Shown here: one piece after another, positions 1,600 to 33,559 of the stretch
Layout of the letters: the number at the start of each line of letters is the position of its first letter
How positions within the stretch are numbered: position 1 is the stretch's first letter
NCBI GenBank assembly: GCA_964484795.1
Contig: CAZAFN010000004.1
Span: forward strand, 13-64,012
Length of the DNA stretch: 64,000 nt
DNA from: an uncultured Alphaproteobacteria bacterium
GTDB lineage: Bacteria > Pseudomonadota > Alphaproteobacteria > Methylaequorales > Methylaequoraceae
Direction of reading: 5' to 3'
Notes under the pieces: generated by a model
The model's database searches: none
The model's input: only the letters and a program-made list of their open reading frames with translations
What the model was told of the DNA's origin: nothing
Made by a program: the position numbers and the translations under genes

Positions 1600-1606
1600 A
1601 CAAAAT

Positions 1607-2131: not shown

Positions 2132-2166
2132 GTTAGTATTTTAAAAGAATTAGGTAGAAATGAAAA

Positions 2167-2988: not shown

Positions 2989-2994
2989 CCATTA

Positions 2995-17415: not shown

Positions 17416-17741
17416 GATTTTTTTTGTACACAACTTTATTTTTTTTGTTTATACAAACATTGAGTTCTCAGGATAGTTTTTCTAATTTTGAAGAGAGTGA
17501 CCATGAAAAAGCAATTAGAGCAGTTAATGATGGTGAAATATTGCCTTTGAACCAAATACTTAATAGAGTAAGTAGTGAATTTTCTGGAAGAGTAATTTCC
17601 ATAAATCTTAAGGATAATGAAAAGGGACTATTTGGTTGGGTTTACGATATAATGATAATTGACAAAAACAATCAAGTGAAACAACTTAGGGTAGATGCAG
17701 GAACTTCAACAATATTGTCAGTTAAATCGGGGGGTGAATGA
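17412..17741 (+). CDS. PepSY-domain secreted protein
   Basis: 109 aa with a signal peptide and a single PepSY-like fold. It overlaps the start of the response regulator. Confidence 0.6.
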   Translation: MRFFLYTTLFFLFIQTLSSQDSFSNFEESDHEKAIRAVNDGEILPLNQILNRVSSEFSGRVISINLKDNEKGLFGWVYDIMIIDKNNQVKQLRVDAGTSTILSVKSGGE

Positions 17742-18406
17742 TGAGAATACTCGTAGTTGAGGACGATCCAAATTTAAATGATCAAATCAGACAGTCATTA
17801 GAGGATAGTGGCTACTCAGTTGATTCTGCTGCTGATGGTGAAGAGGGACATTTTCTTGGAGATACTGAACCATATGATGCTATTGTTTTAGACTTAGGTT
17901 TACCAAAGGTAGATGGAATTACTGTTTTAGAAAAATGGAGAAAAGAAAAGAAAAACTTCCCTGTTCTCATTTTAACAGCCAGAGATCAGTGGAGTGACAA
18001 GGTTTCTGGTTTTGATGCTGGTGCAGATGATTATGTCACGAAACCATTCCAGATGGAAGAGTTGCTTGCTAGGCTTAGAGCACTGATCAGAAGATCAGCC
18101 GGGCATGCAACTTCAGATATTGAATGCGGTCCTTTAAAAATTGATACTAAGTCTAACAAAGTCTTTTTGAATGGAACAAAACTTAAATTGACATCTCATG
18201 AGTATAAGATAATTGAATATTTTCTTCATCATCAAGATAAGGTGATTACAAGAACGGAATTGGTTGAACATATTTATGACCAAGATTTTGATAGAGATTC
18301 GAATACTATTGAAGTATTTATTGGAAGATTAAGAAAAAAGATGGGAATGGATCTTATTAAGACTGAAAGAGGATATGGTTATAGATTGTCAATAGACAAA
18401 GAATAA
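17738..18406 (+). CDS. OmpR/PhoB-family response regulator
   Basis: 222 aa with a receiver domain (DD..D54..K) and a winged-helix output domain. Confidence 0.85.
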   Translation: MMRILVVEDDPNLNDQIRQSLEDSGYSVDSAADGEEGHFLGDTEPYDAIVLDLGLPKVDGITVLEKWRKEKKNFPVLILTARDQWSDKVSGFDAGADDYVTKPFQMEELLARLRALIRRSAGHATSDIECGPLKIDTKSNKVFLNGTKLKLTSHEYKIIEYFLHHQDKVITRTELVEHIYDQDFDRDSNTIEVFIGRLRKKMGMDLIKTERGYGYRLSIDKE

Positions 18407-18410
18407 AAAA

Positions 18411-19760
18411 ATGAATTCACTAGCAGTCAGACTGTTCTTTAGCGCAACTATTTGGATAATTTTTGCTTTGGTGGCAACTGGAGTTTTTTTATCAGACCTT
18501 AATACAAAATCAAATTTTAAAGCCTTTGATGACAGGCTAAATCTTCATCTTGAAACATTAATAGGTGCTAGTCGAGTGGACTCTTCCGATGGAATTACAG
18601 TAGTTAGTTCAATTGGAGACCCTAGGTTTTTTCAACCTTACTCTGGTTGGTATTGGCAAATTAATAGTGGTGCAAGAACATTGAGTAGATCAAGATCAAT
18701 GTGGGATCAGGTATTTACTTTAGATAAAAGATTAATTGGAGGGCGATCTCAATTTATAGATGCTGCTAGAAATCAAAAAGATGAAAAAAAAATAATAGAA
18801 AAAAAAACCTTGCATATCGTTGAAAGACAGATTTCTTTTCCAGGGATTCCGACACCTTTAAATTTTTTAGTTTCTGGTGATACTAAAGAGTATGAGGAAA
18901 ACATAAAAAAATTTGATAATACTTTGTTTGCAGCTCTCATTGTTCTTGGGGTAGGTCTAATGATCTCAGTTTTTCTTCAGGTTAAATATGGGTTACTTCC
19001 TTTAAATAAAATTAAACATTCATTATTTAAAATTCGTAATGGTGATGAAAAGAAATTGAAAGATCCTTACCCTATGGAAGTGCAACCTCTTGCAACGGAA
19101 ATAAATGATCTCTTGGAGCATAATGAAAAAATTGTTGATAGAGCTAAGACACATGTAGGGAATTTAGCGCATGTTCTAAAAACCCCGCTGGCTGTAATTT
19201 CCAACGAGATAAAAGATGAAAACCAAATTATGGACAGTCAAGTTTCATTAATGAAAAAACATATTGATAGATACCTAAAAAAAGCTTACATAGAGTCCTT
19301 AGGTAAGGTCACAAAAGAAAAAATTAATATTTTTGAACTGACCAGTAAAATGTTGGGAGTTTTTAAAAAATTATATCCGAATATGGAAATTAAATTTGAT
19401 CAGAAAATTACTGATTTATGCGTTTTTAGTAGTTTGGAAGATATGGAGGAGGTGATAGGTAATGTAATAGAGAATGCTTGTAAGTGGGGAAAGAGAAAAA
19501 TTAAAATTAAAGTTGAGAAAAATTCTGAATTTGAAGTTGGGATTTCCATTTCTGACGATGGTCCTGGTCTTCGACCTGAAGAGGTTGAAAAGGTTTTTGC
19601 AAGAGGGTTTAGATTAGATGAGCAAAAACCAGGAACTGGTTTAGGTTTGAATATTGTGAAAGATATTGTTGAAACCCTGAAGGGGAAAGTTTGGTTGAAA
19701 AAATCAAAAATTTTAGGTGGTCTTCAAGTAAATGTTGTTTTACCGATTTCAAGAGTTTAG
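18411..19760 (+). CDS. Sensor histidine kinase (periplasmic sensing domain, HAMP, HisKA, HATPase)
   Basis: 449 aa with two TM helices flanking a roughly 150-aa periplasmic loop. The H-box is LAHVLKTPL, and G1/G2 boxes are present. Confidence 0.85.
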   Translation: MNSLAVRLFFSATIWIIFALVATGVFLSDLNTKSNFKAFDDRLNLHLETLIGASRVDSSDGITVVSSIGDPRFFQPYSGWYWQINSGARTLSRSRSMWDQVFTLDKRLIGGRSQFIDAARNQKDEKKIIEKKTLHIVERQISFPGIPTPLNFLVSGDTKEYEENIKKFDNTLFAALIVLGVGLMISVFLQVKYGLLPLNKIKHSLFKIRNGDEKKLKDPYPMEVQPLATEINDLLEHNEKIVDRAKTHVGNLAHVLKTPLAVISNEIKDENQIMDSQVSLMKKHIDRYLKKAYIESLGKVTKEKINIFELTSKMLGVFKKLYPNMEIKFDQKITDLCVFSSLEDMEEVIGNVIENACKWGKRKIKIKVEKNSEFEVGISISDDGPGLRPEEVEKVFARGFRLDEQKPGTGLGLNIVKDIVETLKGKVWLKKSKILGGLQVNVVLPISRV

Positions 19761-20351
19761 AATTTTTTGGCTTATAAAACTTTTTCTATGTAAGAAAGTT
19801 ATCCCAAATTTTCTGATGGCTTCAACATGTTTTTTTGTTCCATACCCTTTATTTTTATTCCAATCGTATTCAGGAAATTTTTTTGAGAATTCTTTCATTA
19901 TGGAATCTCTATGAGTTTTAGCTAAAATAGATGCTGCAGCAATTGCGACAGATTTCTGGTCACCTTTTATTAAAAAACTTGTGCGTTTGTTTAAATGAAA
20001 CGACTCCGTACCATCAATTCGAACTTTATTAGGAAATTCTGAAAATCGCTCAAAAGATCTTTGCATTGACAGTGTTGTAGCTTTTAGAATATTTAAGCAA
20101 TCAACTTCTTCATTACTAGCCATACCATAAGAATATATAGAGAATTTTTTTATGAATTTTGAGAGTTCATCCCTTTTTTTTTCTGTTAATTTTTTTGAAT
20201 CATTAATTTCTTTGACCATATTTTCTTTTAATATTGATTGTCTTAATAATACTGCACAAGAAACTACAGGGCCACACAAGGCTCCTCTTCCAACCTCGTC
20301 AATTCCTATTACTTCTGCATCAATGTCTTTAAAAAAATCTTGATTGATCAT
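19749..20351 (-). CDS. rnhB: Ribonuclease HII
   Basis: 200 aa with the GIDEVGRGALCGPVV signature. Confidence 0.9.
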   Translation of the reverse strand: MINQDFFKDIDAEVIGIDEVGRGALCGPVVSCAVLLRQSILKENMVKEINDSKKLTEKKRDELSKFIKKFSIYSYGMASNEEVDCLNILKATTLSMQRSFERFSEFPNKVRIDGTESFHLNKRTSFLIKGDQKSVAIAAASILAKTHRDSIMKEFSKKFPEYDWNKNKGYGTKKHVEAIRKFGITFLHRKSFISQKILNS

Positions 20352-20400
20352 ATTTGAAAAAACTGTTTACTTATATTATTAAATAGTTGATATATTTGTT

Positions 20401-20922
20401 ATGTTTTTTTCTTTAATTAAAATTTTTGTTTTGACAGTTTTTTTTTCCACAAGTTTTTTTGATGTTTTTGCGTTAAATGATGCGCATTATGAGAAATATA
20501 AAATCAGCAAGAATTGTGAATATTGTGATTTAAGCGACGCCAAGTTAGATGAACTTAATCTTCAAGGTTCTAATCTACAAAATGCAAAGCTTGAAAATGC
20601 AACTTTGATTGGTTCAGATTTGTCTCCTAAGAAGATGGAGAAGACTACGTTATTCACTAATTTAGAAAATACAAACTTTAGAAATGCCAATCTAAAAGAT
20701 ACAGATCTAACGTTAAGTAAAATGTCTAGCAGTTACTTCAAAGGAGCTAACCTAGAGAACGCAAAATTAATAAAGAGTGATTTGTCATTAGGTAATTTTA
20801 GCCAGGTTAATTTTACTGGTGCAGATTTAACAGGAGCAATTCTTGAAAACACTAATTTAAAAGATGCGGTTTTTTGCAGAACTACAATGCCTTCAGGTAA
20901 AAAAAATAATTCTGGGTGTTAA
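20401..20922 (+). CDS. Secreted pentapeptide-repeat protein
   Basis: 173 aa with a signal peptide and tandem A(D/N)Lxx repeats (NLQGSNLQNAKLENATLIGSDLS...). Confidence 0.8.
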   Translation: MFFSLIKIFVLTVFFSTSFFDVFALNDAHYEKYKISKNCEYCDLSDAKLDELNLQGSNLQNAKLENATLIGSDLSPKKMEKTTLFTNLENTNFRNANLKDTDLTLSKMSSSYFKGANLENAKLIKSDLSLGNFSQVNFTGADLTGAILENTNLKDAVFCRTTMPSGKKNNSGC

Positions 20923-21407
20923 TTTTTTTTTTCAGGAACTTTGACTTTCCAATCCCTAGCAAGTTGGTTTGCCTCTTCAACTTGTTTTTTTGTTAATGAA
21001 CTGAATATTTTCTCATAATAATTCTGAGCATCTTGGTCACCTTTTACTCCAGCAAGTATGAACCATTTTAAAGCCACCACTTTGTCTACTTTTACTCCTC
21101 TACCTTCGGCATAAATTTCACCAACATTATATTGTGCAGTTGGAAATCCACGATTTGCTGATTCTAAATAGTAATTGAGTGATAATTCAAGGTCCATTTT
21201 TACACCCTCTCCTTTTTCGTGCAAATAACCGAGATTATTTAGTGCAACGATATCTCCTTGGTCAGCTAGATTTTTCCATATTTCAAATGCTTTTTGATGA
21301 TCTCCATCATTGTATGCCAATTGAGCGTCATACAGAGAAATTTCCTCAGAAAAAACTTGAAAAGCTCCAAGAAACAATAAAAATAAAAAAAAAATTTTTT
21401 TATGCAT
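20919..21407 (-). CDS. Sel1-repeat (TPR-like) exported protein
   Basis: Tandem Sel1 repeats (ALNNLGYLHEKGEGV, AQYNVGEIYAEGRGV). The start chosen is MHKKIFFLFLL, which carries the signal peptide. The longer ORF begins at 21470. Confidence 0.75.
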   Translation of the reverse strand: MHKKIFFLFLLFLGAFQVFSEEISLYDAQLAYNDGDHQKAFEIWKNLADQGDIVALNNLGYLHEKGEGVKMDLELSLNYYLESANRGFPTAQYNVGEIYAEGRGVKVDKVVALKWFILAGVKGDQDAQNYYEKIFSSLTKKQVEEANQLARDWKVKVPEKKN

Positions 21408-21494
21408 CAAATTTACAAGATTACAAATTAATTTAGCCACGGAACCTAGCACACTTTCTGCCCATTTCAAATGAAAATAATATTTATTTTTAAT

Positions 21495-21524
21495 TTGAAT
21501 AATACCAAATTTTGATTATATAAT
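21495..21524 (+). promoter_or_regulatory. Candidate sigma-70 promoter for the PQQ-ADH gene (TTGAAT-N18-TATAAT)
   Basis: Hexamers at 21495-21500 and 21519-21524, about 60 nt upstream of the ATG. They precede a strong AGGAGG RBS at 21572-21577. Confidence 0.3.
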
Positions 21525-21584
21525 GATACTAATCTTAATATTAACACTAAACTTTATTGCGTTTTTGACGCAGGAGGAAATTTT

Positions 21585-23252
21585 ATGGTAAATTTACCAA
21601 AATTATTGTTTGGTCTAGTGGCTTCTTCGTTTTTTGCATTAAATGCTAATGCAGCAGATACGAATGTTTCTCAAGAGATGCTCAGCAGAGCAGATTCTGA
21701 CAGTAGCAATTTTCTGCATACGAATGGTAACTATGAACAAACTCGTTTCTATCCAAATAGCCAGATTAACACGAAAAATGTATCAAAACTTGTGCCGGCT
21801 TGGATTTTCCAAACTGAAGTTGTTGACTCAATGGAAACTTCACCAATTATTGTTAATGGTGTAATGTATGTTTCAACTTCATTTAGTCATGCTTATGCAT
21901 TAGATGCTAAGACTGGTGAAGAAATTTGGCACTACAAACATAAAATGGGTCCAATAACTACTTATTGTTGCGGTCCTAACAACCGTGGAGTTGCAGTGAA
22001 AGACGATAAAGTTTTTCTAGCAACACTTGATGCAAAAGTTGTTGGTTTGAATGCTAAGACAGGAAGAAAACTTTGGGAAACTCAGCTTGCTGATCCAGAG
22101 CTTGGATATTCTGAAACAATGGCTCCTACAGTTGTTGGTAACAAAGTTCTTATTGGTACTAACGGTGGAGAATATGGAATAAGAGGTTTTGTTAAAGCTC
22201 TTGATGCTAATTCTGGAAAGGTCCTGTGGACTTTTTATTCAATTCCAGAAAATTCTGTTGGTGTATGGGAAACACATGATGCAACAGGTCGTGATATGCT
22301 TAGAGACATTAAAGCTGAAAAAGCTGCTCTAAAAAAACTAGGTGATCCATATCAAACACTTGGTGGTGGCGTATGGCAAAACCCAGCAGTAGATGAAGAA
22401 ACTGGAACAGTTTATTTTGTTGTAGGAAACCCATCTCCAGATTTAGATGGTTCAATTAGACCAGGTGACAATCTTTATACAAACTCTGTTGTTGCTGTTG
22501 ATCTTGAAAGTGGTAAATACAAATGCCATTTTCAGTACATCGCTCATGACGTTTGGGATTTAGATGCAGTTTCGCCTGTAATCATAACACCGGTGAAAAA
22601 TAAAGCTGGTAAGACGGTTAAAGGTTTGCTTCATGGTGGTAAAACAGGTCATGTTTATGTTCATGATGCAAAAGATTGTTCTCTAATCCGTTTTTCAGAA
22701 GCAATGGTTCCACAGGAAAATATGTGGGTTCTTCCAACGAAAGCTGGTAAGAGAATGCTTCCTGGTGCAAATGGTGGTGTTGAATGGTCTCCAATGACAG
22801 TTAATCCTAAATTAGGTCTGACCTATGCGATTAATCTTCATCAACCTATGACTTATCATGTTGAAAGCACTCCTTACCCTGGTGGTAAACTTTGGCTTGG
22901 TGGTGCATTCAAAGTAATTCCTGGTGAGCAGCAGTGGGGTAACATTACTGCAGTTGACTACAATACTGGGAAGATTAAGTGGAAAGTTAAAACTGATCAA
23001 CCTATGATTGGTGGAATTTTGGCTACAGCTGGCGGATTAGTATTTGCTGGTGAAGGTAATGGTTGGTTTAGAGCATACGATGCCAAATCAGGATCAAAAT
23101 TATGGCAATTCCAAGCAGGTGCTGGAGTTAACGCTCCTCCATCTTCATTCAGTATTGATGGCGAGCAATATATCGTTGTTGCTGCTGGTGGGAATGTTCA
23201 GCTAAATTATAAGCGTGGTAATAATATCATTGCTTTTAAGCTAGCTAAGTAA
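21585..23252 (+). CDS. PQQ-dependent alcohol (methanol/ethanol family) dehydrogenase, periplasmic; DxD motif suggests a lanthanide-dependent XoxF/PedH/ExaF type
   Basis: 555 aa with a signal peptide ending ANA-AD. It is an eight-bladed propeller quinoprotein with the vicinal disulfide YCCGPNNRG and the catalytic region HDVWDLD (D325 and D327). Confidence 0.9.
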
Positions 23253-23270
23253 TTTAATTTTTCAAAGGAA

Positions 23271-23305
23271 GGGGCTATGAAAATTCTCATAGCCCCTTTT
23301 TTTTT
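23271..23305 (+). terminator. Rho-independent terminator after the PQQ-ADH gene
   Basis: A perfect 10-bp stem (GGGGCTATGA / TCATAGCCCC) with a 6-nt loop, followed by T9. Confidence 0.7.
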
Positions 23306-23310
23306 GTATT

Positions 23311-23880
23311 ATGAATTTCAAAAAGTTAATTTTCTTAATATTTTTTTGTTCTTCCTTAGAACTTTTTTCAGAAGAAATGTCTCAAGAATTAGTGGATGCA
23401 CTTGAAACTTGTAATTCTTGTCATGGCAAGGAAGTGTTGGCTGATAACCCTGAAGTTCCTGTAATTACCGGACAAAGTCTCCAATACATATATCGTCAAT
23501 TGAAAGATTACAAGTCAAATTCTAGAGCACATGAAATAATGTCATCGATGGTTAGTGATTTGGAAAAAAAAATATTACTAGAGTTGGCAACTCATTTCTC
23601 TGAGCAAAAGTGGATAGATTTTAGAACGGATAGAGAATTTGATGAAACACTTGCGTTAGATATGATTGCATCTGGTCAGTGCAGCCAATGCCATGGAACT
23701 TTTAAAGAAAATAATCTTGCTGCACCAAGACTTGCAGGTCAAAAAGAATCTTATCTCATTGCGACAATGACGGCTTTTAAAAAGAGAACTCGTTTGAACG
23801 CACCGGATAAGTCAAGTTTATTTGAAACAATTTCTGAAGAGCAGATCAAGGCTCTTTCAGGTTACATTGCTAACAAATAA
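23311..23880 (+). CDS. Diheme cytochrome c (c4-like), probable electron acceptor of the ADH
   Basis: 189 aa with a signal peptide and two CxxCH motifs (CNSCH, CSQCH). Confidence 0.8.
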   Translation: MNFKKLIFLIFFCSSLELFSEEMSQELVDALETCNSCHGKEVLADNPEVPVITGQSLQYIYRQLKDYKSNSRAHEIMSSMVSDLEKKILLELATHFSEQKWIDFRTDREFDETLALDMIASGQCSQCHGTFKENNLAAPRLAGQKESYLIATMTAFKKRTRLNAPDKSSLFETISEEQIKALSGYIANK

Positions 23881-23884
23881 TTTT

Positions 23885-24859
23885 TCATTCAAGTACGAGT
23901 TTAATTTCTTTACTTTTAGTTAATTCAATGGCTTTTTTGTTTTCATTATTTTTTAAATTCTTGTTTGCTCCAGATTCAACTAAGAACTTTGTTATTTCTA
24001 AACTATTCTGTTTTGCAGCATACATTAAAGCTGACATACCTAGATTGTCTTGATGATCAATTTGAGCATTGTTATCAATCAATACTTGAAGTGTTTTAAC
24101 TGCATCAATTTGAGGCGTATCATCTGTACTTCCAGCAGCCCATATGAGTGGAGTAAGATCATTCCCGTGTTTTTTATTTGCGTCAACTCCATTCTGAATT
24201 AATATTTCAACTATGTCGTAAAATCCTTTTGCAGATGCATAGATTATTGCAGACTTTCCTGTTTCATCAACGGTATTTGGATTAGCATTTTTTTTTAATA
24301 GAAGTTTTACAAAATTTAAATTTCCATTAAATGAAGCTGCAGACAGAGGGGTTTCATTGTCGAGACTTCTAGTGTTTGTGTCAACATTCTTTGATAGAAG
24401 GTATTTTACTATTTTTTTTCTGTTTTTTTTAATTGCTTGAAGCAATGCTGTTTTTCCTCTTAAATTTAGATGCTCAAGATTTGCACCTTTGCTTTCCAAA
24501 AATTTAACTATTTTTAGATGTCCAGATTCTGATGCTCTGATAAGAGGTGTATTTGCAAATTTGTCTCGCGTATTTACAAGCCCTCCTTTTTGAACAATAT
24601 CAAAAACAACTTTGCCGCAGCCCTTTTCACTAGCTTCTAATAATAACAATGAAAGTTCTCTAGCTAATGGATTTTGGCCAAATGCATTTAATTTTTTAAT
24701 GACAGGTCGACATAAATCCTTGTTTTTATCTTTTAATTGATTTTCCTCACTACAAACATTCTTAGAAAACATTAAAATAAAAAACAATAAGGTATAAATT
24801 GTTTTGGTAAATGCTATTCTGAAGCATTGTGAATTTAAACTACTTTTATAATTGGCCAT
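23885..24859 (-). CDS. Exported ankyrin-repeat protein
   Basis: 324 aa with an N-terminal hydrophobic leader then at least six ANK repeats (TPLIRASESGHLKIVKFL, NETPLSAASFNGNLNFVKLLL...). Confidence 0.8.
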   Translation of the reverse strand: MANYKSSLNSQCFRIAFTKTIYTLLFFILMFSKNVCSEENQLKDKNKDLCRPVIKKLNAFGQNPLARELSLLLLEASEKGCGKVVFDIVQKGGLVNTRDKFANTPLIRASESGHLKIVKFLESKGANLEHLNLRGKTALLQAIKKNRKKIVKYLLSKNVDTNTRSLDNETPLSAASFNGNLNFVKLLLKKNANPNTVDETGKSAIIYASAKGFYDIVEILIQNGVDANKKHGNDLTPLIWAAGSTDDTPQIDAVKTLQVLIDNNAQIDHQDNLGMSALMYAAKQNSLEITKFLVESGANKNLKNNENKKAIELTKSKEIKLVLE

Positions 24860-25746
24860 TGAAAAACGTTCTTTCTTTTCTAATTTTTATTTTGGGACCA
24901 GAATATTCATTTTCAAATGAAAATTCAACATATAAACCATCAGGAATTATGGTTTCTGTTGAGACACATAAACTTCATTTTTTGTGCACAGGAAAAGGAA
25001 AAAAAACCTTCATATTAGAAGCAGGTATTGGTGCTAATCATCTTGATTGGTCAAGACTACAACCTAAATTAAGCAAGAAATTTAAAGTTTGCAGTTATGA
25101 TCGTACTGGGTATGGATGGTCAGAGAGAGGACCTAAACCAAGAGATGCGTTAACAATTTCACAAGAACTTTCTCAGGCAATTACTTTTCTCTCACTTTCT
25201 AAACCAATAATTTTTGTTGGGCACTCATTTGGTGGAATAATAGCAATGGTTTTAGGTTCAGAATTTTCCAGGATTATTGATGGTATTGTACTTGTTGATT
25301 CTATGCATCCAGAACAATACGAAAGATTTGAAGAAAATAATATTGATATTCCAGTTGAGCCAACTAGGGCAATCATCTACTCAAGTCCAGATGTTCTTAC
25401 TTATGGGATTCCTGATGAAAAAAAAAAAGAAGCCTATTACTTAGCTAGAACGGAAAAGACTAGATCATTTATGTTTAATGAAATGAGGAATATGAAAAAG
25501 TCATTAAAGCAGGTAAATTTTAAAAAAAAAAATAAAAAATCTTTAGTATTAACTCACTCAAGAAGAGACTGGGATGTCCACTCTATTGATGGAAAGATGG
25601 AAGATGTTTGGTTAGAACTACAAAGTGATTTAGCAAAAAATTTGAATGCGGATTTAATCGTTGTTCCGGATGCTGGTCACCAAATGCAACTTGAAAACTA
25701 TGACTTTATTTATGAAAAGTTGTTAGAATTTTCAGAAAACTTTTAG
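24829..25746 (+). CDS. Alpha/beta-fold hydrolase (esterase/lipase-like)
   Basis: 305 aa with a GHSFGG nucleophile elbow and C-terminal Asp/His (DAGHQ). An N-terminal hydrophobic segment suggests export. Confidence 0.75.
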   Translation: MNLNYFYNWPLKNVLSFLIFILGPEYSFSNENSTYKPSGIMVSVETHKLHFLCTGKGKKTFILEAGIGANHLDWSRLQPKLSKKFKVCSYDRTGYGWSERGPKPRDALTISQELSQAITFLSLSKPIIFVGHSFGGIIAMVLGSEFSRIIDGIVLVDSMHPEQYERFEENNIDIPVEPTRAIIYSSPDVLTYGIPDEKKKEAYYLARTEKTRSFMFNEMRNMKKSLKQVNFKKKNKKSLVLTHSRRDWDVHSIDGKMEDVWLELQSDLAKNLNADLIVVPDAGHQMQLENYDFIYEKLLEFSENF

Positions 25747-25756
25747 TTACTTGAAT

Positions 25757-26950
25757 CTAAAATAGACACTTACTGTCACTGATATCAAATCCAAGTGTAT
25801 CTTCAGCATTTATCTTATGAAGGAATTTCTCATTTGGCATTTTTGTAATTACTGCATTATGGGTAGATAGAAGGATTGGTTGTCTAAGTTGATTGTTCCA
25901 ATTTCTAAAACTACCTACCTTTCCTTTATACATATCTACAGCTAGAGTTTTTTTTTGGAATAGTTTTAGAAAGTTAATTTTTTCATTTTCATCTTTTATC
26001 TTCAGAGATTCAGCAATTATTTTAATTGAAACCCAAGCGGCCCAATCACTATCTTGCATCTTTCTGTCTTTTACTTCCCAGGACAAGTTGTAATCATTTC
26101 TTTGAAATCTTTTATTTAACTGTGGAGCTCCATTTCTTTCCCATGCCCAATGCCAAGCTCTAGGCGTTAGTCCTATGTCTCCAACAACTGGAGTTGGGTA
26201 CATTGTATTAAAAGGAAGATTCCTACTAAATTCACCAAAGTAATCAAAAATCACAATAGTGTCAGATTTTTTTCCCTTGGTTAGTAATTTAGGATTGTTA
26301 GCTTCTCTATCCTCTGGGTTTTTAGATAAAGTAAATTTTCTTTCATTAATAATTTTAAGTTTGTATTTTTTACTTGAATCTAAGAAAGACAAGTATTTGT
26401 TTTGGTCTTCATCTTTTGGCCCGTATAGAACTAATACATTTTTCCAATTTTTTAAAATTAAAAATTGTGCTAATGAATCTGTATACATCTTGTCAGAAGG
26501 AATAATATTAAAAAGGTTTTTTTTACAATTTTTTTCCCTAAAACTATTTTTTGAGATTCTTGCATTAATGAAAGCCAAGCCTTCAGGCAAAATATTAATT
26601 ATTTCTTCCATAATTTTTTCAGGTAGATCTAAAATAGTTATTGAGTTTTTTGGAAAACCCTTTGTCAATTTTGAAAAATCACTTAGATCGTTTATGAAAT
26701 GTTCTTTAAGTACTAATTGAGTTTTTAGTAGGCTTAATTTGACTTTATTTTCTTCAATGCCTGTTAATATTGCTCTGTTTTGAGGATATTTCTTTCCTAA
26801 AATAATTCCAGTATAACCCTTCTTTTCATTGTGATCTTCATCATTTCTAAATTTAATCAAATTGATGTCTACTTTTTTAATATCGTTTTTGGCATTACTA
26901 AAAGAAGTAATTAAAAAAGCAGTAAAGAAAACAAGAAAAAAAAATTTCAT
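25757..26950 (-). CDS. Periplasmic solute-binding protein of the type associated with PQQ-dependent alcohol dehydrogenase systems (Leu/Ile/Val-binding fold)
   Basis: 397 aa with a signal peptide. Its size and context match the 'PQQ-ADH system' SBP family. No cognate permease or ATPase is adjacent. Confidence 0.55.
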   Translation of the reverse strand: MKFFFLVFFTAFLITSFSNAKNDIKKVDINLIKFRNDEDHNEKKGYTGIILGKKYPQNRAILTGIEENKVKLSLLKTQLVLKEHFINDLSDFSKLTKGFPKNSITILDLPEKIMEEIINILPEGLAFINARISKNSFREKNCKKNLFNIIPSDKMYTDSLAQFLILKNWKNVLVLYGPKDEDQNKYLSFLDSSKKYKLKIINERKFTLSKNPEDREANNPKLLTKGKKSDTIVIFDYFGEFSRNLPFNTMYPTPVVGDIGLTPRAWHWAWERNGAPQLNKRFQRNDYNLSWEVKDRKMQDSDWAAWVSIKIIAESLKIKDENEKINFLKLFQKKTLAVDMYKGKVGSFRNWNNQLRQPILLSTHNAVITKMPNEKFLHKINAEDTLGFDISDSKCLF

Positions 26951-27921
26951 TATTCGACTATTAAGATTGCATATGGAGATTCTCCAACTTTAACAGACCG
27001 CAAGACTTTTCTTTTCTTTACATCTATAATTGAAATATCATCGGACATACCGTTTGCAACATAAAGATAATTGTCATTTTTGCTAAGTGCCATTCCCCAT
27101 GCCCGTTTTCCAACGAGAATATAATCTAAGATTTTTCCTGTATCAGGCTCAAAAACACCTACATGATTTGCAATTCCAAGTGCAACAAACCCCAAACTGT
27201 TTGTGCTATTTAATAGAACATCAACTGGTGTTATTTCCTCCTTCTTAAACCCTTTTGGCAAAAAAATTATTGTTTTAATTACTTTGAATGTTTCTGTGCT
27301 AATTATATTGACAATACTACCAAGCTCCGCGGAGACAAATAATTTTTTTCCATCATTAGATAATGCAAAACGTCTTGGTCTCCTGTCTACGGGAATGTTC
27401 TTTTGGATTTTTCCTGATAATAAATTTAGAACATGAACAATATCTGCCACTTCTGATGCTACGAAAGCAAATTTACCGTCTTTGGTTATTTGAACGCCCT
27501 CTGGTTCTTCACCAGTATTGAATTCTTGAAGCAACTTTCCTTCAGCCCAATCCCAGACAGTAGCTGTGGCATCGTCTTCATTAGAAACAACAAGATGTTT
27601 TCCATTGGGATGTAAATCAAATGTTTCCGGGGATAAAACATTTCTTATCCTACCTACTACTTCTAAGGAATTAGTATCATAAAAAAGTATTAAATCATCA
27701 TCAGCACAACCAACAAAAAAATATTTCTTGTCTTTTGAGAAGTGCATTCCTCTTGGTCTTCCACAGGTTCCTAGTTCCTGAATTAATTCTCCTTCTTTCG
27801 AAAGTATACTAAGGCTATTACTTCTTTCATTAGAAACTATTATTTTCTCCGAAAAAGCATTTGAATTAGATGTAGAAAGAATTGTAATAGCAAAGAGTAG
27901 AAATTTTAATTTTTTTTTCAT
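26950..27921 (-). CDS. YVTN-family beta-propeller protein (PQQ-dependent-catabolism-associated type)
   Basis: 323 aa with a signal peptide and repeated blades of DGK-x-FV/YV-xN. Its stop is adjacent to the start of the SBP gene. Confidence 0.75.
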   Translation of the reverse strand: MKKKLKFLLFAITILSTSNSNAFSEKIIVSNERSNSLSILSKEGELIQELGTCGRPRGMHFSKDKKYFFVGCADDDLILFYDTNSLEVVGRIRNVLSPETFDLHPNGKHLVVSNEDDATATVWDWAEGKLLQEFNTGEEPEGVQITKDGKFAFVASEVADIVHVLNLLSGKIQKNIPVDRRPRRFALSNDGKKLFVSAELGSIVNIISTETFKVIKTIIFLPKGFKKEEITPVDVLLNSTNSLGFVALGIANHVGVFEPDTGKILDYILVGKRAWGMALSKNDNYLYVANGMSDDISIIDVKKRKVLRSVKVGESPYAILIVE

Positions 27922-27956
27922 TAGATTAATTTAGTGATTTTTAAGGATTATTTAAA

Positions 27957-28481
27957 TTATTTTTCATCTAATCTTGGAATTAATTCAACTAGGTTGCAAG
28001 GTTTTGTTCTAGAGTCTAACTGGAATTTTAAAATCCCATCCCAAGCGTCTTTGCAAGCACCAGGTGACCCAGGTACTGAAAAAATGAACTTATCTTTTGC
28101 AACTCCAGCTATTGCTCTGGATTGTAAAGATGATGTGCCAATTTTTTTAAAACTTATATATCTGAATAATTCACCAAACCCAGTAATTTCCTTTGTAATT
28201 ATTTTTTTGACAGCCTCTGGAGTTGAATCTCTCCCTGTCAAACCAGTTCCTCCTGTTAAAATAATGGCATTAACGTTTTTAAATTTGAGGGATTTTTTTA
28301 AATAATCTTGAATTAAAACCTTGTCATCTTTTAAAAAAACTTTTTTAAACAATTTGTGTCCGGATTCAAATATTCTTTTTTCTAAAACCTTGCCAGATTT
28401 GTCTGACATCTCATTCCTTGTATCCGAAATGACTAATAATAAAATACTTAATTTTTGGAATTTTGCAGTGTTTTTTTTCAT
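27957..28481 (-). CDS. moaB: Molybdenum cofactor biosynthesis protein MoaB/MogA family
   Basis: 174 aa with the GGTGLTGRD motif of the MoCF_biosynth fold. Confidence 0.8.
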   Translation of the reverse strand: MKKNTAKFQKLSILLLVISDTRNEMSDKSGKVLEKRIFESGHKLFKKVFLKDDKVLIQDYLKKSLKFKNVNAIILTGGTGLTGRDSTPEAVKKIITKEITGFGELFRYISFKKIGTSSLQSRAIAGVAKDKFIFSVPGSPGACKDAWDGILKFQLDSRTKPCNLVELIPRLDEK

Positions 28482-28485
28482 ATCT

Positions 28486-29235
28486 TTAGAACTTAACTTT
28501 ATTCTTTAATAAATAATTGTGTATTTCAAGTAGATCATCCCAAATTCTTTTTTTTTCAATTGGGTTTCTAAGTAAATAAGCTGGATGAAAAATTGCTCTA
28601 GCCGGGATTTTTATGTTAAAATTTTCATCGATGTAAAAATGTTCTTTTCCTCTAAGCTTGGTAATGCCTTCATCAATTTTCAATAAAGATTTTGCTGCAA
28701 CATTACCAAGAAAAATTAATAATTTTGGTTTTATTATGTTTATATGTTCTTTTGTCGAAGATATACAAGTTTTAATTTCTTGGCTATTAGGTGTGCGATT
28801 GCCTGGTGGCCGCCAGAAAACCAGATTTGTAATATAAAAATTTTTAGTCCTATCAAGATCTATAAAACCAAGCATTTTATCAAGTAATTTTCCAGCTTGT
28901 CCAACAAAAGGTTTTCCATTTCTATCTTCTTCTGCACCTGGGGCTTCACCAATTAGCATGATTTCTGAATTTTGATTTCCATCTGAAAAAACAAGATTTG
29001 ATGCAATGTCCTTTAAATTGCAATCTAAATTATGAACTTTAACCAAAAGATTTTTAATTCTTTCAGATTTTGGAATTATGGAATTGTTAGATTCTTTTTT
29101 ATGTATAATTTTCTGGCAACTTCCTTTTTTGTCAAGAGTATCTTTTTCTTGAATTCTGGTTGATTGAGAGATGCAAGTTGTTATTCCCAACGATTTGTAA
29201 AATTCAATAAAAGACTTTATGTTTTTAACTTTCAT
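28486..29235 (-). CDS. Uracil-DNA glycosylase, family 4
   Basis: GEAPGAEEDRNGKPFVGQAGKLL motif and HPAYLLRNP C-terminal motif. Confidence 0.85.
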   Translation of the reverse strand: MKVKNIKSFIEFYKSLGITTCISQSTRIQEKDTLDKKGSCQKIIHKKESNNSIIPKSERIKNLLVKVHNLDCNLKDIASNLVFSDGNQNSEIMLIGEAPGAEEDRNGKPFVGQAGKLLDKMLGFIDLDRTKNFYITNLVFWRPPGNRTPNSQEIKTCISSTKEHINIIKPKLLIFLGNVAAKSLLKIDEGITKLRGKEHFYIDENFNIKIPARAIFHPAYLLRNPIEKKRIWDDLLEIHNYLLKNKVKF

Positions 29236-29288
29236 AGATATATAATATTTAGTTTAATGTATAAATGAAAGATTAGTAATTAATTGAG

Positions 29289-30938
29289 ATGAATATTACT
29301 AGAGAAAAAATGAATTATGATTTGCTTATCGTTGGAGCTGGCCCGTCAGGCCTTTCAGCGGCGATAAATTTTAAAAAGTTGTGTAAATTAAATAATAAAG
29401 AATTTAGTGTTTGTGTTGTTGAAAAAGGTTCTGAAGTGGGTGCGCATATACTATCTGGTGCTATATTAGAACCAACTGCACTGAATGAGCTTGTAGAAAA
29501 TTGGAAAGAAATTGAAGATTGTCCAGTTAAAACACCAGTAAAAAAAGAATCCCTTAGATATTTATCAAAGAGTAAATCATATAATTTTCCGAGTTTTTTA
29601 ATTCCAACAGCAATGCACAACAAAGGAAATTATATAATTTCTCTTGGGGCTTTCTGCAAATGGCTGGCGGGTGAGGCCGAGAGATTAGGAGTTGAAATTT
29701 ACCCTGGATTTACCGCCTCAGAGATTCTAATGATAGATGATAGTTTATCTGGAATAATTACAGGTGACTTAGGGGTGAAGAAAGATGGTCAACCTGGAGA
29801 GAATTTTCAACCGGGAATTGAGATTCATTCAAAATTCACTCTGTTTGCTGAAGGTTGTAGAGGTCATCTTGGGAAAAAAATAATGAAATCATTTGATTTG
29901 CGAAAAGATTCTCAACACCAAACCTATGGTATTGGTTTGAAGGAATTATGGGAAATTAAACCTGAAAATTCCAATCCAGGTGAAGTTTTACATACAATTG
30001 GTTGGCCATTGGATAATGATACATATGGAGGATCTTTTTTATATCATCTTTCAGAAAGTTTAGTTTCTGTTGGTTTCGTAATAGGATTAGATTACAAAAA
30101 CCCTTATCTTTCACCCTATGAAGAGTTTCAAAGATTTAAAACACATCCCAAAATAAGTGGAATTTTTAATGAAGGTAGAAGAATTTCTTACGGAGCTAGA
30201 GCTTTGAACGAGGGCGGGTGGCAATCATTACCAAAACTTTCCTTTCCAGGAGGAGCATTGATTGGTTGTGACGCTGGCACACTTAACACGCCGAAAATCA
30301 AAGGGACTCATACTGCTATGAAATCGGGGATGATTGCAGCAGAAGAGGTTTTTGATGAAATTAATAGTGGAAATCAAAACACAGAAATTAAGGATTTTCA
30401 AAAAAAATTTTTTAATTCATGGGCAGGTAAAGAGCTAAAATCTGCTAGAAATGTAAGACCTTCATTTAAATATGGACTCAAATTAGGTTTGATACTTTCA
30501 GGTCTTGACCAAACTCTTCTTAGAGGAAAAGCTCCTTGGACTCTAAATCACCCTGAACCTGACCATCTATCACTAAAAAAAAAGACTGATTCTAAAAAAA
30601 TTGATTATCCTAAGCATGATGGTGTTTTAACATTCGATAGGTTAACAAATGTTTCCTTTTCCTCAACCTACCATGAAGAAAACCAACCCTGCCATCTAAA
30701 AATTGAGGATCAGAGCATTCCAATTTCAAACAATTATGAATTTTTTGATTCTCCCGAGCAAAGATATTGTCCTGCTGGTGTTTACGAAATTTTAAATGAC
30801 AATGATGGTAACCCTCGTTTACAAATAAACTTTCAGAATTGCATTCACTGCAAAACATGTGACATCAAAGATCCAAAGCAAAATATTATATGGGTTTCAC
30901 CCGAAGGAGGAGGTGGGCCAAATTATACTAATATGTAA
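29289..30938 (+). CDS. etfD: Electron-transfer flavoprotein:ubiquinone oxidoreductase
   Basis: 549 aa with N-terminal FAD binding (LIVGAGPSGLSAA) and a C-terminal 4Fe-4S ferredoxin-like CPAGVY...CIHCKTCDIKDP. Confidence 0.9.
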   Translation: MNITREKMNYDLLIVGAGPSGLSAAINFKKLCKLNNKEFSVCVVEKGSEVGAHILSGAILEPTALNELVENWKEIEDCPVKTPVKKESLRYLSKSKSYNFPSFLIPTAMHNKGNYIISLGAFCKWLAGEAERLGVEIYPGFTASEILMIDDSLSGIITGDLGVKKDGQPGENFQPGIEIHSKFTLFAEGCRGHLGKKIMKSFDLRKDSQHQTYGIGLKELWEIKPENSNPGEVLHTIGWPLDNDTYGGSFLYHLSESLVSVGFVIGLDYKNPYLSPYEEFQRFKTHPKISGIFNEGRRISYGARALNEGGWQSLPKLSFPGGALIGCDAGTLNTPKIKGTHTAMKSGMIAAEEVFDEINSGNQNTEIKDFQKKFFNSWAGKELKSARNVRPSFKYGLKLGLILSGLDQTLLRGKAPWTLNHPEPDHLSLKKKTDSKKIDYPKHDGVLTFDRLTNVSFSSTYHEENQPCHLKIEDQSIPISNNYEFFDSPEQRYCPAGVYEILNDNDGNPRLQINFQNCIHCKTCDIKDPKQNIIWVSPEGGGGPNYTNM

Positions 30939-32551: not shown

Positions 32552-33421
32552 ATGCTTTCAGAAGTAAAAAAAATATCTCCCGCCAAAATAAACTTGTATC
32601 TAGAGATTATAAATAAGAGAAGTGATGGTTACCATAATCTGGAAAGTTTAATGAGCTTTTGTGATTTTGGTGACGTCATTTCAGTCAAAAAGTCTAATGT
32701 TTTTCAATTAGATATAGTAGGACAGTTTAGCAAAAATTTGATTTCCAAAGATAATATAATTGTAGAGACGATAGAAAAATTACAAGATTTTTTTGATAGA
32801 GAATTTAAAGTTTATGTAAAGTTGACTAAGAATTTGCCAATATCATCAGGAATGGCTGGAGGATCCTCTAATGCCGCAACTTTAATTCGAGCTATAATTG
32901 ATCTGTATAAACTTAAAATTGAAAAAGAGCGAATCAATGAATTATTGATCTCAATTGGTTCAGATGTACCATTTTGTTTTTTTGGAAAAACAGCACTAGT
33001 TCAAGGTAAAGGAGAAAAAGTGAATTTTTTTTCAAAAGGTATTCCAGAGTTTTTTGTTCTTTTAGCAAACCCTAGACAACAAATTTCCACCAAAAAAATA
33101 TTTGAAAGACTTGAAATTAAATCAGTTAAAAGAAAAATGAATTCATTAGATTATTCTTCAGATGAAAATTTTGTACAACATATCAAAAACAGAAAAAATG
33201 ATTTAGAAATTCCTGCAATCAAACAGTGTAAAAAGATTTCTTATTTGTTAGATTTTTTTAATTCTCATACGGACTGTTTATTTAGTCGGATGACTGGTTC
33301 TGGTGCCACATGTTTTGCCGTATTCCAGACCAATAAGAAACTAATAAATGCTGAAAAAATTTTAAGGGAAAAGTTTAAAAATTACTGGATACAAAAAACT
33401 AAAATTGTAAATGAAATTTAA
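32552..33421 (+). CDS. ispE: 4-diphosphocytidyl-2-C-methyl-D-erythritol kinase
   Basis: GHMP kinase with PAKINLYL and SSGMAGGSSNAA motifs. The start is set at MLSEVKK. The longer ORF from 32402 overlaps the TPR gene. Confidence 0.85.
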   Translation: MLSEVKKISPAKINLYLEIINKRSDGYHNLESLMSFCDFGDVISVKKSNVFQLDIVGQFSKNLISKDNIIVETIEKLQDFFDREFKVYVKLTKNLPISSGMAGGSSNAATLIRAIIDLYKLKIEKERINELLISIGSDVPFCFFGKTALVQGKGEKVNFFSKGIPEFFVLLANPRQQISTKKIFERLEIKSVKRKMNSLDYSSDENFVQHIKNRKNDLEIPAIKQCKKISYLLDFFNSHTDCLFSRMTGSGATCFAVFQTNKKLINAEKILREKFKNYWIQKTKIVNEI

Positions 33422-33473
33422 GATATAATGGCTTGTATAAAAATCTAAAAATGTTTATGTTTTAATTTCAAGT

Positions 33474-33548: not shown

Positions 33549-33559
33549 GTTGAAAAAAA

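Follow-up and report, generated by a model that had tools for sequence, protein, structure and literature searches.

Periplasmic PQQ dehydrogenase systems with which the locus described here can be compared include the lanthanide-dependent ethanol dehydrogenases PedH/ExaF ("ADH type 2b") with the Pseudomonas putida KT2440 ped cluster, the calcium-dependent ethanol dehydrogenases of the ExaA–ExaB/PedE–PedF systems ("ADH type 2a"), and the XoxF–XoxG–XoxJ lanthanide methanol dehydrogenase systems (XoxF1–5). In Pseudomonas, the pentapeptide protein PedD adjoins pedE (PMC12997753), and growth of P. putida at nanomolar lanthanum needs PedA1A2BC (PMC6839425). An ocean survey recovered lanthanide-type PQQ dehydrogenases in 20% of marine MAGs from 14 phyla, and most of these enzymes carry a D-x-D motif like that of the dehydrogenase examined here; neither SAR11 nor HIMB59 is listed there among the organisms that have them, and a module with a cytochrome c4 and an ankyrin protein is not described (Voutsinos et al. 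2025, PMC11996626). Methanol oxidation in cultured SAR11 proceeds via an Fe-containing alcohol dehydrogenase (PMC3160333), as an earlier sequence-only reading of this DNA had correctly stated.

An eight-gene block between rnhB and moaB

We analyzed a single 64-kb stretch of DNA (the window) from a low-GC marine alphaproteobacterium, in which eight ORFs, at the coordinates first given for them, are bounded by rnhB and moaB. Profile searches upheld the protein families that had been proposed for all eight from the letters alone.

22–3717, plus strand: aa3-type cytochrome c oxidase genes (ctaD 3′ end, ctaB, ctaG, ctaE, surf1), with COX1, UbiA, CtaG_Cox11, COX3, and SURF1 Pfam domains
19749–20351, minus strand: rnhB, left edge of the variable site; RNase HII is at the matching position in relatives
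20401–20922, plus strand: secreted pentapeptide-repeat protein, 173 aa (PF00805, 90.8 bits)
20919–21407, minus strand: secreted Sel1-repeat protein (PF08238, 58.6 bits)
21585–23252, plus strand: PQQ-dependent dehydrogenase, 555 aa (PF01011, TIGR03075)
23311–23880, plus strand: c4-type dihaem cytochrome c with two CxxCH motifs, 189 aa
23885–24859, minus strand: secreted ankyrin-repeat protein, 324 aa (Ank_2, 142 bits)
24829–25746, plus strand: secreted hydrolase with an alpha/beta fold, GTG start, 305 aa (Abhydrolase_1, 59 bits)
25757–26950, minus strand: PedA1-like periplasmic binding protein, 397 aa (TIGR03863)
26950–27921, minus strand: PedA2-like YVTN seven-bladed beta-propeller, 323 aa (TIGR03866)
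27957–28481, minus strand: moaB-type MoCF_biosynth gene, right edge of the variable site; the same neighbor in all relatives

By a heuristic check of hydrophobic N-termini, all eight products have a signal-peptide-like stretch and none has a later membrane span, in agreement with the periplasmic location previously assigned to each. The call requires the 189-aa start for the cytochrome and a start at Met22 for the Sel1 protein, whose ORF extends to 21470; from this likely start at 21407, MHKKIFFLFLLFLGAFQVFS/EE has the form of a signal peptide, and the homologues in the close relatives L081 and L092 are 159 and 157 aa long. The hydrophobic stretch of the ankyrin protein spans residues 21 to 30, and the signal-like N-terminus of the hydrolase is kept in frame in L081 and in locus L001.

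The dehydrogenase belongs to a separate clade

The dehydrogenase matches PF01011 at 266 bits and the methanol/ethanol family model TIGR03075 at 469 bits, under the cut-off of 480, and on sequence grounds it falls within the methanol/ethanol superfamily of PQQ quinoproteins. Its best solved relatives are PedH (6zcv, 286 bits), ExaA (1flg, 279 bits), and a quinohaemoprotein ADH (1kv9, 269 bits), followed by XoxF5 (6dam, 256 bits) and MxaF (∼215 bits), on a scale where a near-self comparison scores 1290 bits. We ruled out assignment as XoxF, MxaF, ExaA, or PedH, to each of which identity is about 30 to 37%, and none of the 30 confirmed enzymes in Table S1 of PMC11996626 exceeds ∼37%. The protein belongs to a separate clade, within which 73 to 81% identity is kept across Alpha- and Gammaproteobacteria. 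Sorbose-, glucose-, and DON-type enzymes score far lower, at 131 to 159 bits (PDB) and at 207 bits for TIGR03074. The predicted fold matches only PQQ dehydrogenases (Foldseek, TM 0.65–0.70); this search does not separate the PedH, ExaA, quinohaemoprotein ADH, and XoxF types, and the AlphaFold model has pLDDT <50 in the active-site loops (residues 126–132 and 321–328), too low for judging their geometry.

Because the enzyme falls outside the XoxF, ExaF/PedH, and MxaF clades, methanol or ethanol as its substrate, and with it the C1/C2-alcohol use first proposed for the block, is only a guess. A true PQQ dehydrogenase with some other natural substrate is a reading that we hold as possible but somewhat doubtful; equally tentative candidates for it include aldehydes, diols or polyols, and sugars, as well as an alcohol freed from an ester by the adjacent hydrolase. 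The near-equal distances to PedH, ExaA, quinohaemoprotein ADHs, and XoxF favor it, as does the failure of Foldseek to tell these types apart, and the conservation across classes suggests a single particular substrate. Moreover, the secreted hydrolase recurs after the ankyrin gene in 7 to 8 loci, and no aldehyde dehydrogenase is linked. Weighing against it are the far lower sorbose-, glucose-, and DON-type scores and the methanol/ethanol model as the best family match.

The active site suggests a lanthanide enzyme

Residues C128-C129, E196, N282, D325, and D327 align with PedH C131-C132, E199, N281, D323, and D325 (ligands from PMC11845868), giving a vicinal Cys-Cys pair, Glu/Asn/Asp metal ligands, and an extra Asp (D-L-D). 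The PQQ- and metal-site residues are invariant in 82 to 83 of the 83 clade members, and D327 in all 83. The lanthanide-type D-x-D motif (D325, D327) is present, and the enzyme probably uses a lanthanide, as the earlier reading had supposed.

D-x-D is an indicator only, since it is also found in the membrane glucose dehydrogenase, a Ca or Mg enzyme (PMC11996626). It is accordingly conceivable, if unlikely, that the block enzyme does not need a lanthanide and either works with calcium or has no metal preference, in which case the PedA1/PedA2-like pair would serve a non-lanthanide role. Consistent with this, the ORF scans and the tblastn of the window turned up no PedB/PedC, TonB receptor, or lanmodulin-like gene, and seawater holds lanthanides at ∼1e-11 M versus calcium at ∼1e-2 M (PMC11996626). 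The invariance of D327 speaks against it, however, and the methanol/ethanol-group enzymes with the extra Asp that have been structurally tested all bind lanthanide (PMC11996626, PMC11845868); PedA1A2BC-type genes are also often linked in the clade.

The cytochrome and the predicted electron route

The cytochrome has haem motifs CNSCH at residue 34 and CSQCH at residue 124, which are conserved in the clade comparison together with Met77. Its best solved relatives are cytochromes c4 (6q2u, 52.6 bits) and 1etp, and it matches PdsA weakly over the full length; we rejected the PedF/ExaB c550 type because the closest solved protein is a cytochrome c4. The gene lies downstream of that for the dehydrogenase in all 80 genome loci compared, which supports the original view that the block is a module in which a periplasmic PQQ quinoprotein is served by a c-type cytochrome of its own.

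The analysis establishes the gene content and protein families of the block, its active-site residues and how well they are conserved, its synteny, and the purifying selection on it; on this footing we predict that the block is quite probably a working periplasmic oxidation system. The Sec-exported quinoprotein would act in the periplasm on a small alcohol, or perhaps on an aldehyde, and hand the electrons over to the co-transcribed dihaem protein of the cytochrome c4 kind. From this protein they would enter the respiratory chain, with the aa3 oxidase as the simplest destination, so that energy could be gained without importing the substrate into the cell. The aa3 oxidase, encoded in the window together with bc1 genes, is a plausible terminal acceptor, although its connection with the block is inferred. 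Negative results count against a working system: among the scanned ORFs of the window we found no aldehyde dehydrogenase domain that could dispose of the product and no TonB-receptor domain, and the window as a whole yielded no PedB/PedC homologues (tblastn) and no pqqB, C, D, or E (Pfam scans of ORFs and tblastn). The sub-cut-off matches to TIGR03075 and TIGR03863 and the distance from every confirmed enzyme weigh in the same direction.

Accessory proteins and gene neighborhood

Among the 80 loci, the dehydrogenase has the ankyrin gene as a neighbor in 68 to 75, the propeller in 55, the binding protein in 50, the PedB ATPase in 40, the PedC permease in 32, and any of pqqB/C/D/E in 21. One conserved partner of the clade, the ankyrin protein, had not been singled out by the sequence-only reading; it may act in assembly, docking, or stabilization in the periplasm. 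Pentapeptide, Sel1, and hydrolase genes are only rarely added to the set: the hydrolase follows the ankyrin gene in 7 to 8 loci, and a pentapeptide gene occurs only at L001, L004, weakly at L065, and in L081 and L092. These three may be extras peculiar to a plankton version of the cassette. The pentapeptide gene resembles that for PedD in position, and the likeness is positional.

The binding protein matches TIGR03863 at 292.5 bits, under the cut-off of 413.6, and a sequence search found no solved relative for it. The propeller (79.6% identical to the L081 copy) matches TIGR03866 at 288.8 bits, just over the cut-off of 287.3. These matches support a PedA1/PedA2-type assignment of the pair (PMC6839425), which had first been placed in the "PQQ-dependent catabolism-associated" families. 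As in PedA1A2BC/Lut systems, the two genes adjoin, overlapping translationally by one base. The TIGR03864 ATPase accompanies the binding protein in 34 of the 50 loci that have it, and other genomes of the clade hold the full four-gene set, whereas the present locus and those of L081, L092, and L001 have neither the ATPase nor the permease. Because the PedB, PedC, and Pqq representatives of the clade loci all exceed NCBIfam cut-offs (including TIGR03864 and TIGR03861), the clade is tied to PQQ and to the PedA1A2BC system. The pair may represent the periplasmic half of a lanthanide-linked PedA1A2BC/Lut system, lacking ATPase and permease at least locally.

The label ped/exa-like, under which the block was first described, holds only in part, through the binding protein, propeller, and pentapeptide genes; it does not extend to the c4-like cytochrome or to PedB, PedC, PedG, PedI, and the ped regulators (PedS/PedR), which are absent. 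With PedH/ExaF and the KT2440 ped cluster the block shares a periplasmic eight-bladed PQQ propeller enzyme, the Cys-Cys pair, the Glu/Asn/Asp ligands, the extra Asp, PedD-, PedA1-, and PedA2-like neighbors, and a dedicated c-type cytochrome. It differs in enzyme identity (only about 32–37%), in having a dihaem c4 type where the ped cluster has PedF c550, and in adding ankyrin, Sel1, and hydrolase genes. Superfamily, fold, and periplasmic logic are common to ExaA–ExaB/PedE–PedF, but ExaA has Ser ("DFS") where the block enzyme has Asp327 ("DLD"), and the cytochrome types differ. In the Xox systems, too, the enzyme carries D-x-D, has a periplasmic cytochrome dedicated to it, and is very highly conserved across taxa; the block enzyme scores only 217 to 256 bits against XoxF enzymes (26–29% identity in structural alignments), its cytochrome is not of the cL/XoxG type, and no XoxJ/MxaJ-type binding protein is present.

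PQQ supply

The Pfam scans covered the listed ORFs outside the block down to a length of 110 aa, except that about five of these were read from synteny or other look-ups. The lack of pqq genes in the window confirms what had been noted before, and none occurs in the compared stretches of L081 and L092. PQQ would therefore have to be made by genes in another part of the genome or be taken from the surroundings, and it would need to cross only the outer membrane. E. coli retains a PQQ glucose dehydrogenase and depends on outside PQQ.

The same absence, together with the missing membrane half of the transporter, could mean that PQQ is unobtainable, that the protein stays an apo-enzyme, and that the block is an inactive relic. 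We regard this as very improbable given the E. coli precedent, the intactness of all eight genes in three diverged lineages, and the selection they are under. Purifying selection acts on all testable block genes: dN/dS is 0.06 to 0.19 in the five where it could be computed (dehydrogenase 0.058, cytochrome 0.068, ankyrin 0.14, hydrolase 0.08), within the range of the housekeeping genes on either side.

History and base composition of the block

Three sister lineages have a single fasciclin gene at the rnhB/moaB site in place of the block, which bears out its suspected accessory status. L081 and L092 carry the block at the same site, with equal gene order and 56 to 90% protein identity in L081. 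Within a streamlined lineage of marine Alphaproteobacteria, the block is an accessory that one subclade has long possessed and passed on vertically; enzymes of this family are widespread. The lineage had been called SAR11-like, an assignment for which we found no proof: named relatives are only "Rickettsiales bacterium", "Alphaproteobacteria ...", and "alpha proteobacterium ...", and the evidence leans weakly toward a HIMB59/AEGEAN-169-like affiliation.

Elevated GC (40–44%) and highly-expressed-gene codon usage had also been claimed for the dehydrogenase and cytochrome genes. The measured values are lower, at 38.7% and 34.4% (highest 1-kb bin, 39.1%), and third-position GC (21% and 26%) equals that of flanking genes (19–23%), so the higher total GC is due to amino-acid composition and carries no codon-usage signal.

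The agreement in third-position GC between block and flanks also bears on whether foreign DNA was joined to an alphaproteobacterial contig by binning or assembly. L092 is a mosaic, identical to the window right of ∼22385 and 81 to 87% identical in nucleotides to the left, so chimeric joins are possible in the region. Such an artefact is nonetheless scarcely credible for the window, considering the shared gene order in L081 and two independent contigs, L093 (Logan) and L094 (ENA), that are collinear with positions 18000 to 29747 at 99.6% nucleotide identity without gaps and reproduce both junctions. The assembly is sound across the block.

Gene content of the block

Eight ORFs fill positions 20401 to 27921 exactly between rnhB and a moaB-type gene, as the sequence-only reading had described. 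To judge from the sequences, the most likely function of this block is that of a periplasmic PQQ-dependent dehydrogenase, whose central enzyme (555 amino acids) is called ADH below. The genes and the family matches of their products are listed in map order.

Genes of the block and its two flanks
19749-20351, minus strand: rnhB
Block gene 1: pentapeptide protein (PF00805)
Block gene 2: Sel1 protein (PF08238)
21585-23252, plus strand: ADH
23311-23880, plus strand: c-type cytochrome (two CxxCH motifs)
Block gene 5: ankyrin protein (Ank_2, 142 bits)
Block gene 6: alpha/beta hydrolase (Abhydrolase_1, 59 bits)
Block gene 7: binding protein, PedA1-like (TIGR03863, 292.5 bits, below the cut-off of 413.6)
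Block gene 8: YVTN propeller, PedA2-like (TIGR03866, 288.8 bits, cut-off 287.3)
27957-28481, minus strand: moaB-type gene

The prediction that every product is periplasmic held up in a heuristic check, which found a signal-peptide-like hydrophobic stretch at all eight N termini and a later membrane span in none. Because the homologues in relatives are 157 to 159 amino acids long, the Sel1 protein probably starts at Met22. Export of the cytochrome needs the 189-amino acid start, and its homologue in L081, a close relative that carries the block, also has a signal; this start is more plausible than a 167-amino acid version. The shorter version appears in one database entry (P0160), begins at Met23, and would lack the signal peptide required by a c-type cytochrome. 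The hydrolase signal is in frame and conserved in relatives. Its ORF starts with GTG, and the gene callers applied to the relatives picked later starts with which the signal peptide is lost. The ORFs for the ankyrin protein and the hydrolase are divergent and, with the starts as listed, share 31 bases (24829-24859).

Classification of the ADH

Because of its bit scores, aligned residues, sequence clusters, and fold matches, the ADH is by prediction a PQQ quinoprotein of the methanol/ethanol superfamily that carries a lanthanide-type motif and stands outside the XoxF, MxaF, ExaA, and PedH clades. The protein matches PF01011 with 266 bits (Pfam cut-off 26.7) and falls just short of the NCBIfam model for the methanol/ethanol family (TIGR03075, 469 bits, cut-off 480.05). 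Scores against solved structures are to be read against the 1290 bits obtained with a near-identical database copy of the ADH.

Scores of the ADH against solved structures
PedH (6zcv): 286 bits
ExaA (1flg): 279 bits
Quinohaemoprotein ADH (1kv9): 269 bits
XoxF5 (6dam): 256 bits
MxaF: about 215 bits
Sorbose and DON-type enzymes: 131-159 bits (sorbose dehydrogenase alone, 131-145)

The earlier reading had suggested the XoxF1-5, ExaF/PedH, and MxaF clades as possible homes for the enzyme, and the bit scores and 50%-identity clusters place it in none of them. Membership of the ExaF/PedH clade (ADH type 2b) is ruled out by the 286 bits to PedH versus 1290 for a near-self match, with identity to PedH of 31 to 32% in the structural alignment, and membership of the XoxF1-5 and MxaF groups by scores of 189 to 256 bits to every solved chain of these two types. 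The case that the same reading had named against itself, namely that the ADH would fall among the glucose/sorbose/quinate-type PQQ dehydrogenases, is likewise rejected, given 207 bits to TIGR03074 (cut-off 833) and the low scores of sorbose dehydrogenase. Among the clusters of a 50%-identity library, the clade formed by the ADH and its close homologues in Alpha- and Gammaproteobacteria has a representative that is 59% identical to the ADH, and the next full-length clusters are 42 to 47% identical. The 30 PQQ dehydrogenases with biochemical confirmation listed in a 2025 compilation all fall outside this clade (PMC11996626 Table S1). The tested enzyme from Tistlia was considered as a clade member and ruled out, as it is a XoxF5.

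The aligned active-site residues bear on the metal that the enzyme may use. Residues C131-C132 of PedH correspond to C128-C129 of the ADH, a vicinal Cys-Cys pair next to PQQ that is kept in 82 of 83 clade members, and PedH E199, N281, and D323 correspond to E196, N282, and D325 (the metal ligands Glu and Asn and the catalytic Asp), which are present in all 83. The ADH segment D325-L326-D327 forms a D-x-D motif with an extra Asp two residues past the catalytic one; D327, again found in 83 of 83 sequences, pairs with PedH D325, and the same position in ExaA is Ser. Residues C131-C132, E199, N281, D323, and D325 of PedH are the reported praseodymium ligands (PMC11845868). Across the clade, this set is thus invariant except in one sequence, at the Cys pair, and the ADH is probably lanthanide-dependent.

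The AlphaFold model of the ADH is of moderate quality (pLDDT 64, pTM 0.73); its input alignment was shallow, with sequences at least 78% identical, and its active-site loops are too uncertain for ligand geometry. When the model was searched against the PDB with Foldseek, the best 30 matches were all PQQ dehydrogenases (TM 0.61-0.70), which supports the eight-bladed beta-propeller fold and does not tell subfamilies apart.

The cytochrome and comparison with the Pseudomonas ped cluster

The best solved relatives of the cytochrome are cytochrome c4 (6q2u, 52.6 bits) and then 1etp, and the protein, with two haem sites, is predicted to be cytochrome c4-like. Both features rule out its identification as a PedF/ExaB-type c550. 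Electrons from the ADH would pass to this dedicated cytochrome c4 and from there to the oxidase.

The Pseudomonas cluster comprises PedD (pentapeptide), PedE, PedH, PedF (c550), PedG (a XoxJ-like binding protein), PedA1 (binding protein), PedA2 (propeller), PedB, PedC, PedI, and regulators (PMC12997753), and growth at nanomolar lanthanum requires PedA1A2BC (PMC6839425). The window holds putative counterparts of PedD (pentapeptide, at the family level only), PedH, PedA1, and PedA2. In contrast, its cytochrome is of the dihaem c4-like kind instead of PedF c550; PedB, PedC, PedG, PedI, and the regulators are absent from the window; and the ankyrin, Sel1, and hydrolase proteins are additions. The earlier label "ped/exa-like" therefore stands for the probable working of the system and, tentatively, for the PedA1/PedA2-like pair and the pentapeptide protein, but not for the cytochrome type, the missing Ped genes, or the type of cluster. 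"Ped-like" is apt for the probable mode of working of the block, and the window falls outside the ped cluster type.

Absent genes and cofactor supply

Window ORFs of at least 110 amino acids outside the block were scanned with Pfam, apart from about five (atpB, smc, a thioredoxin-like gene, mutY, and a response regulator at 17738-18406) that were read from synteny with relatives. The scanned ORFs encode only housekeeping functions (aa3 oxidase, bc1 complex, ATP synthase b, dsbD, molybdenum-cofactor and methionine-salvage genes, and amtB), and no ABC ATPase or permease domains were found among them. Representatives of PqqB, PqqC, PqqD, PqqE, PedB, and PedC had no tblastn match in the whole window, in L081, or in L092 (a second close relative with the block). 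Both searches bear out the statement that no pqq genes are nearby, which holds for the 64-kb window.

A tentative and rather doubtful reading is that a periplasmic quinoprotein harvests energy for a streamlined alphaproteobacterium of the open ocean and that all of its cofactors are scavenged, PQQ from other microbes and lanthanides at picomolar levels, with a PedA1/PedA2 pair that works without ABC membrane parts or a TonB receptor, an ankyrin partner, and a cytochrome c4 acceptor. If the block is active, an organism with a very small marine genome would draw respiratory energy from volatile, dissolved alcohols that need no import. The two cofactors, PQQ and probably lanthanides, might have to be obtained from outside the cell; carbon turnover, trace rare-earth chemistry, and microbial cofactor sharing would thereby be linked. 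Should the scavenging reading be true, the module of ADH, cytochrome c4, and ankyrin protein would be a major pathway by which alcohols are oxidized in the ocean, and the ankyrin partner a previously undescribed one; a literature search for a link between PQQ ADHs and ankyrin proteins returned nothing relevant. Neither the enzyme class nor its general abundance in seawater is new, lanthanide-type PQQ dehydrogenases having been reported in 20% of ocean MAGs (PMC11996626). The system is of moderate interest, which would grow if the cell does scavenge its cofactors and the ankyrin protein is a genuine partner.

Distribution and gene neighbors of the clade

Members of the clade assigned to Rhodobacterales, Hyphomicrobiales, Rhodospirillales, Pseudomonadales, and other groups are 73 to 81% identical to the ADH, and isolates among them include Alsobacter, Tistlia, Microvirga, Salipiger, and Oricola. 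A genome scan yielded at least 588 stretches matching the clade ADH. For neighbor counts, ORFs were called in 80 fetched loci and clustered, and the cluster representatives were annotated.

Neighbors of the clade ADH in 80 loci
Cytochrome: 80
Ankyrin protein: 68-75
Propeller: 55
Binding protein: 50
ABC ATPase (TIGR03864, 356 bits, above cut-off): 40
PedC permease (TIGR03861, 404 bits, above cut-off): 32
Any of pqqB/C/D/E (representatives at equivalog level): 21
Secreted 153-amino acid protein: 20
Hydrolase: 7-8
Sel1 protein: 4
Pentapeptide protein: 3-4

Strong conservation of the module of ADH, cytochrome c4, and ankyrin protein extends over hundreds of Alpha- and Gammaproteobacteria, with more than 500 species representatives, and because it is so widely shared, one enzyme assay would annotate a large family. 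The whole eight-gene order recurs in only one of the 80 loci, a Litorivicinus single-cell genome of 45% GC (L001).

Several further genes were noted near clade ADHs. The secreted protein of about 153 amino acids (L026:5412-5873 and 19 other loci; L001:15483-15869) is without an NCBIfam match and has no copy in the window. A secreted 425-amino acid protein in 14 of the 80 loci (L013:6878-8155 and 13 others) resembles by eye a soluble glucose/sorbosone dehydrogenase; its sole NCBIfam match is TIGR02604 (50.7 bits, below the cut-off of 122.2), and it would give the loci that have it a second putative PQQ enzyme. An abundant marine lineage is represented by L090:891-15235 and L091; its ADH is 80% identical and occurs in 122 index blocks. 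There, a cassette of ADH, cytochrome, ABC ATPase, ABC-2 permease, binding protein, and propeller directly adjoins genes for a tyrosine integrase, an HTH_17 protein, and an AAA_25 protein, and it looks like a mobile island.

Host lineage

The window contains no rRNA gene, and its Rfam match is only a tRNA. Its proteins are identical to those of a 79,053-bp contig of an NCBI MAG and to Tara sequences, and the nearest relatives by ETF-QO carry only the labels "Rickettsiales bacterium," "Alphaproteobacteria ...," and "alpha proteobacterium ..."; of two NCBI MAGs named alpha proteobacterium, MED-G10 clusters with HIMB59, and MED-G09 is placed with the PS1 clade. The relatives' fetched loci have 28 to 29% GC and their largest contigs span 1.14 to 1.58 Mb. 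Genomes of AEGEAN-169/HIMB59 average 1.47 to 1.55 Mb with 27 to 32.5% GC, and the SAR11 mean is 1.22 Mb. The evidence leans, not decisively, toward a host that is HIMB59/AEGEAN-169-like or of another streamlined lineage labeled "Rickettsiales," rather than Pelagibacter proper. A literature search for PQQ ADHs in SAR11, Pelagibacter, or HIMB59 returned nothing relevant. The attribution to an Fe-containing ADH given in the sequence-only reading is correct for methanol oxidation in SAR11 Ia (PMC3160333).

Composition, site, and history of the block

The region is collinear, gap-free, and 99.6% identical over window positions 18000-29747 in two independent contigs (L093, Logan, DRR683874; L094, ENA, ERZ27286492). 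In L092 (JGI 3300007514), similarity changes at about position 22385, inside the ADH gene. Rightward of this point, 98 to 100 of every 100 bases in the ADH gene match and the proteins downstream of the ADH are 100% identical to those of the window; to the left, nucleotide identity in the 5' half of the ADH gene is 81 to 87% (94% in one 100-base bin), and rnhB, pentapeptide, and Sel1 products are about 60% identical at the protein level. The breakpoint reflects either recombination between homologous copies of the conserved ADH gene or a chimera that arose in metagenome assembly.

The GC content of 40 to 44% given earlier for the ADH and cytochrome genes was too high (38.7% and 34.4%, respectively, with 39.1% in the top 1-kb bin), and the proposed highly-expressed codon usage was not borne out. 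The excess lies at codon positions 1 and 2 and is therefore a matter of amino acid composition, not a codon-usage signal. Third-position GC is 19 to 26% in block genes versus 19 to 23% in the flanks, and raised GC as a mark of high expression or recent transfer is rejected on this ground. Overall, what the sequence-only reading observed was largely right and its interpretation partly so.

That the block may be accessory agrees with what is found in three sister lineages, located via the neighboring ETF-QO gene (76-79% identical). Their flanking order from smc to amtB is that of the window, in one case on a 1.53-Mb contig, and a single fasciclin gene lies between rnhB and moaB in place of the block. 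In L081 (GCA_036337355.1) and L092, all eight genes of the block stand where they do in the window. Between the window and L081, identity is 56 to 90% for block proteins and 62 to 78% for flanking proteins, and dN/dS is 0.06 to 0.19 for the ADH, cytochrome, ankyrin, hydrolase, and binding-protein genes and 0.06 to 0.22 for the flanks; values were not computed for the pentapeptide, Sel1, and propeller genes because synonymous sites are saturated. Because sister lineages have the fasciclin gene at this site, L081 and L092 have the block, and block divergence and dN/dS are like those of the flanks, the block is accessory in the wider group and, within its subclade, old, vertically inherited, and under selection. 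A recent horizontal arrival, or a recent island, is rejected, as divergence of the block parallels that of the flanks.

The fasciclin gene of the sister lineages (L082-L089, e.g., L084:8060-8668) encodes a secreted protein and occupies the interval that corresponds to window positions 20352-27956. Another fasciclin gene (L001:11740-12363) lies between the ADH and cytochromes of the Litorivicinus cassette; the two types are 37 to 41% identical over most of their length, including an unusual C-terminal PIT(A/S)CC tail, and the gene is present in none of the other 79 genome loci nor in the window. An ancestral cassette may have included fasciclin, different parts then being lost by different lineages. 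A further difference lies outside the block: relatives carry a double ABC_tran (ABC-F-like) gene of 591 to 621 codons between a GHMP kinase gene and a Na/sulfate-type symporter gene, and at this site (33421-33560) the window has only tRNA-Gln(ttg), at 33474-33548.
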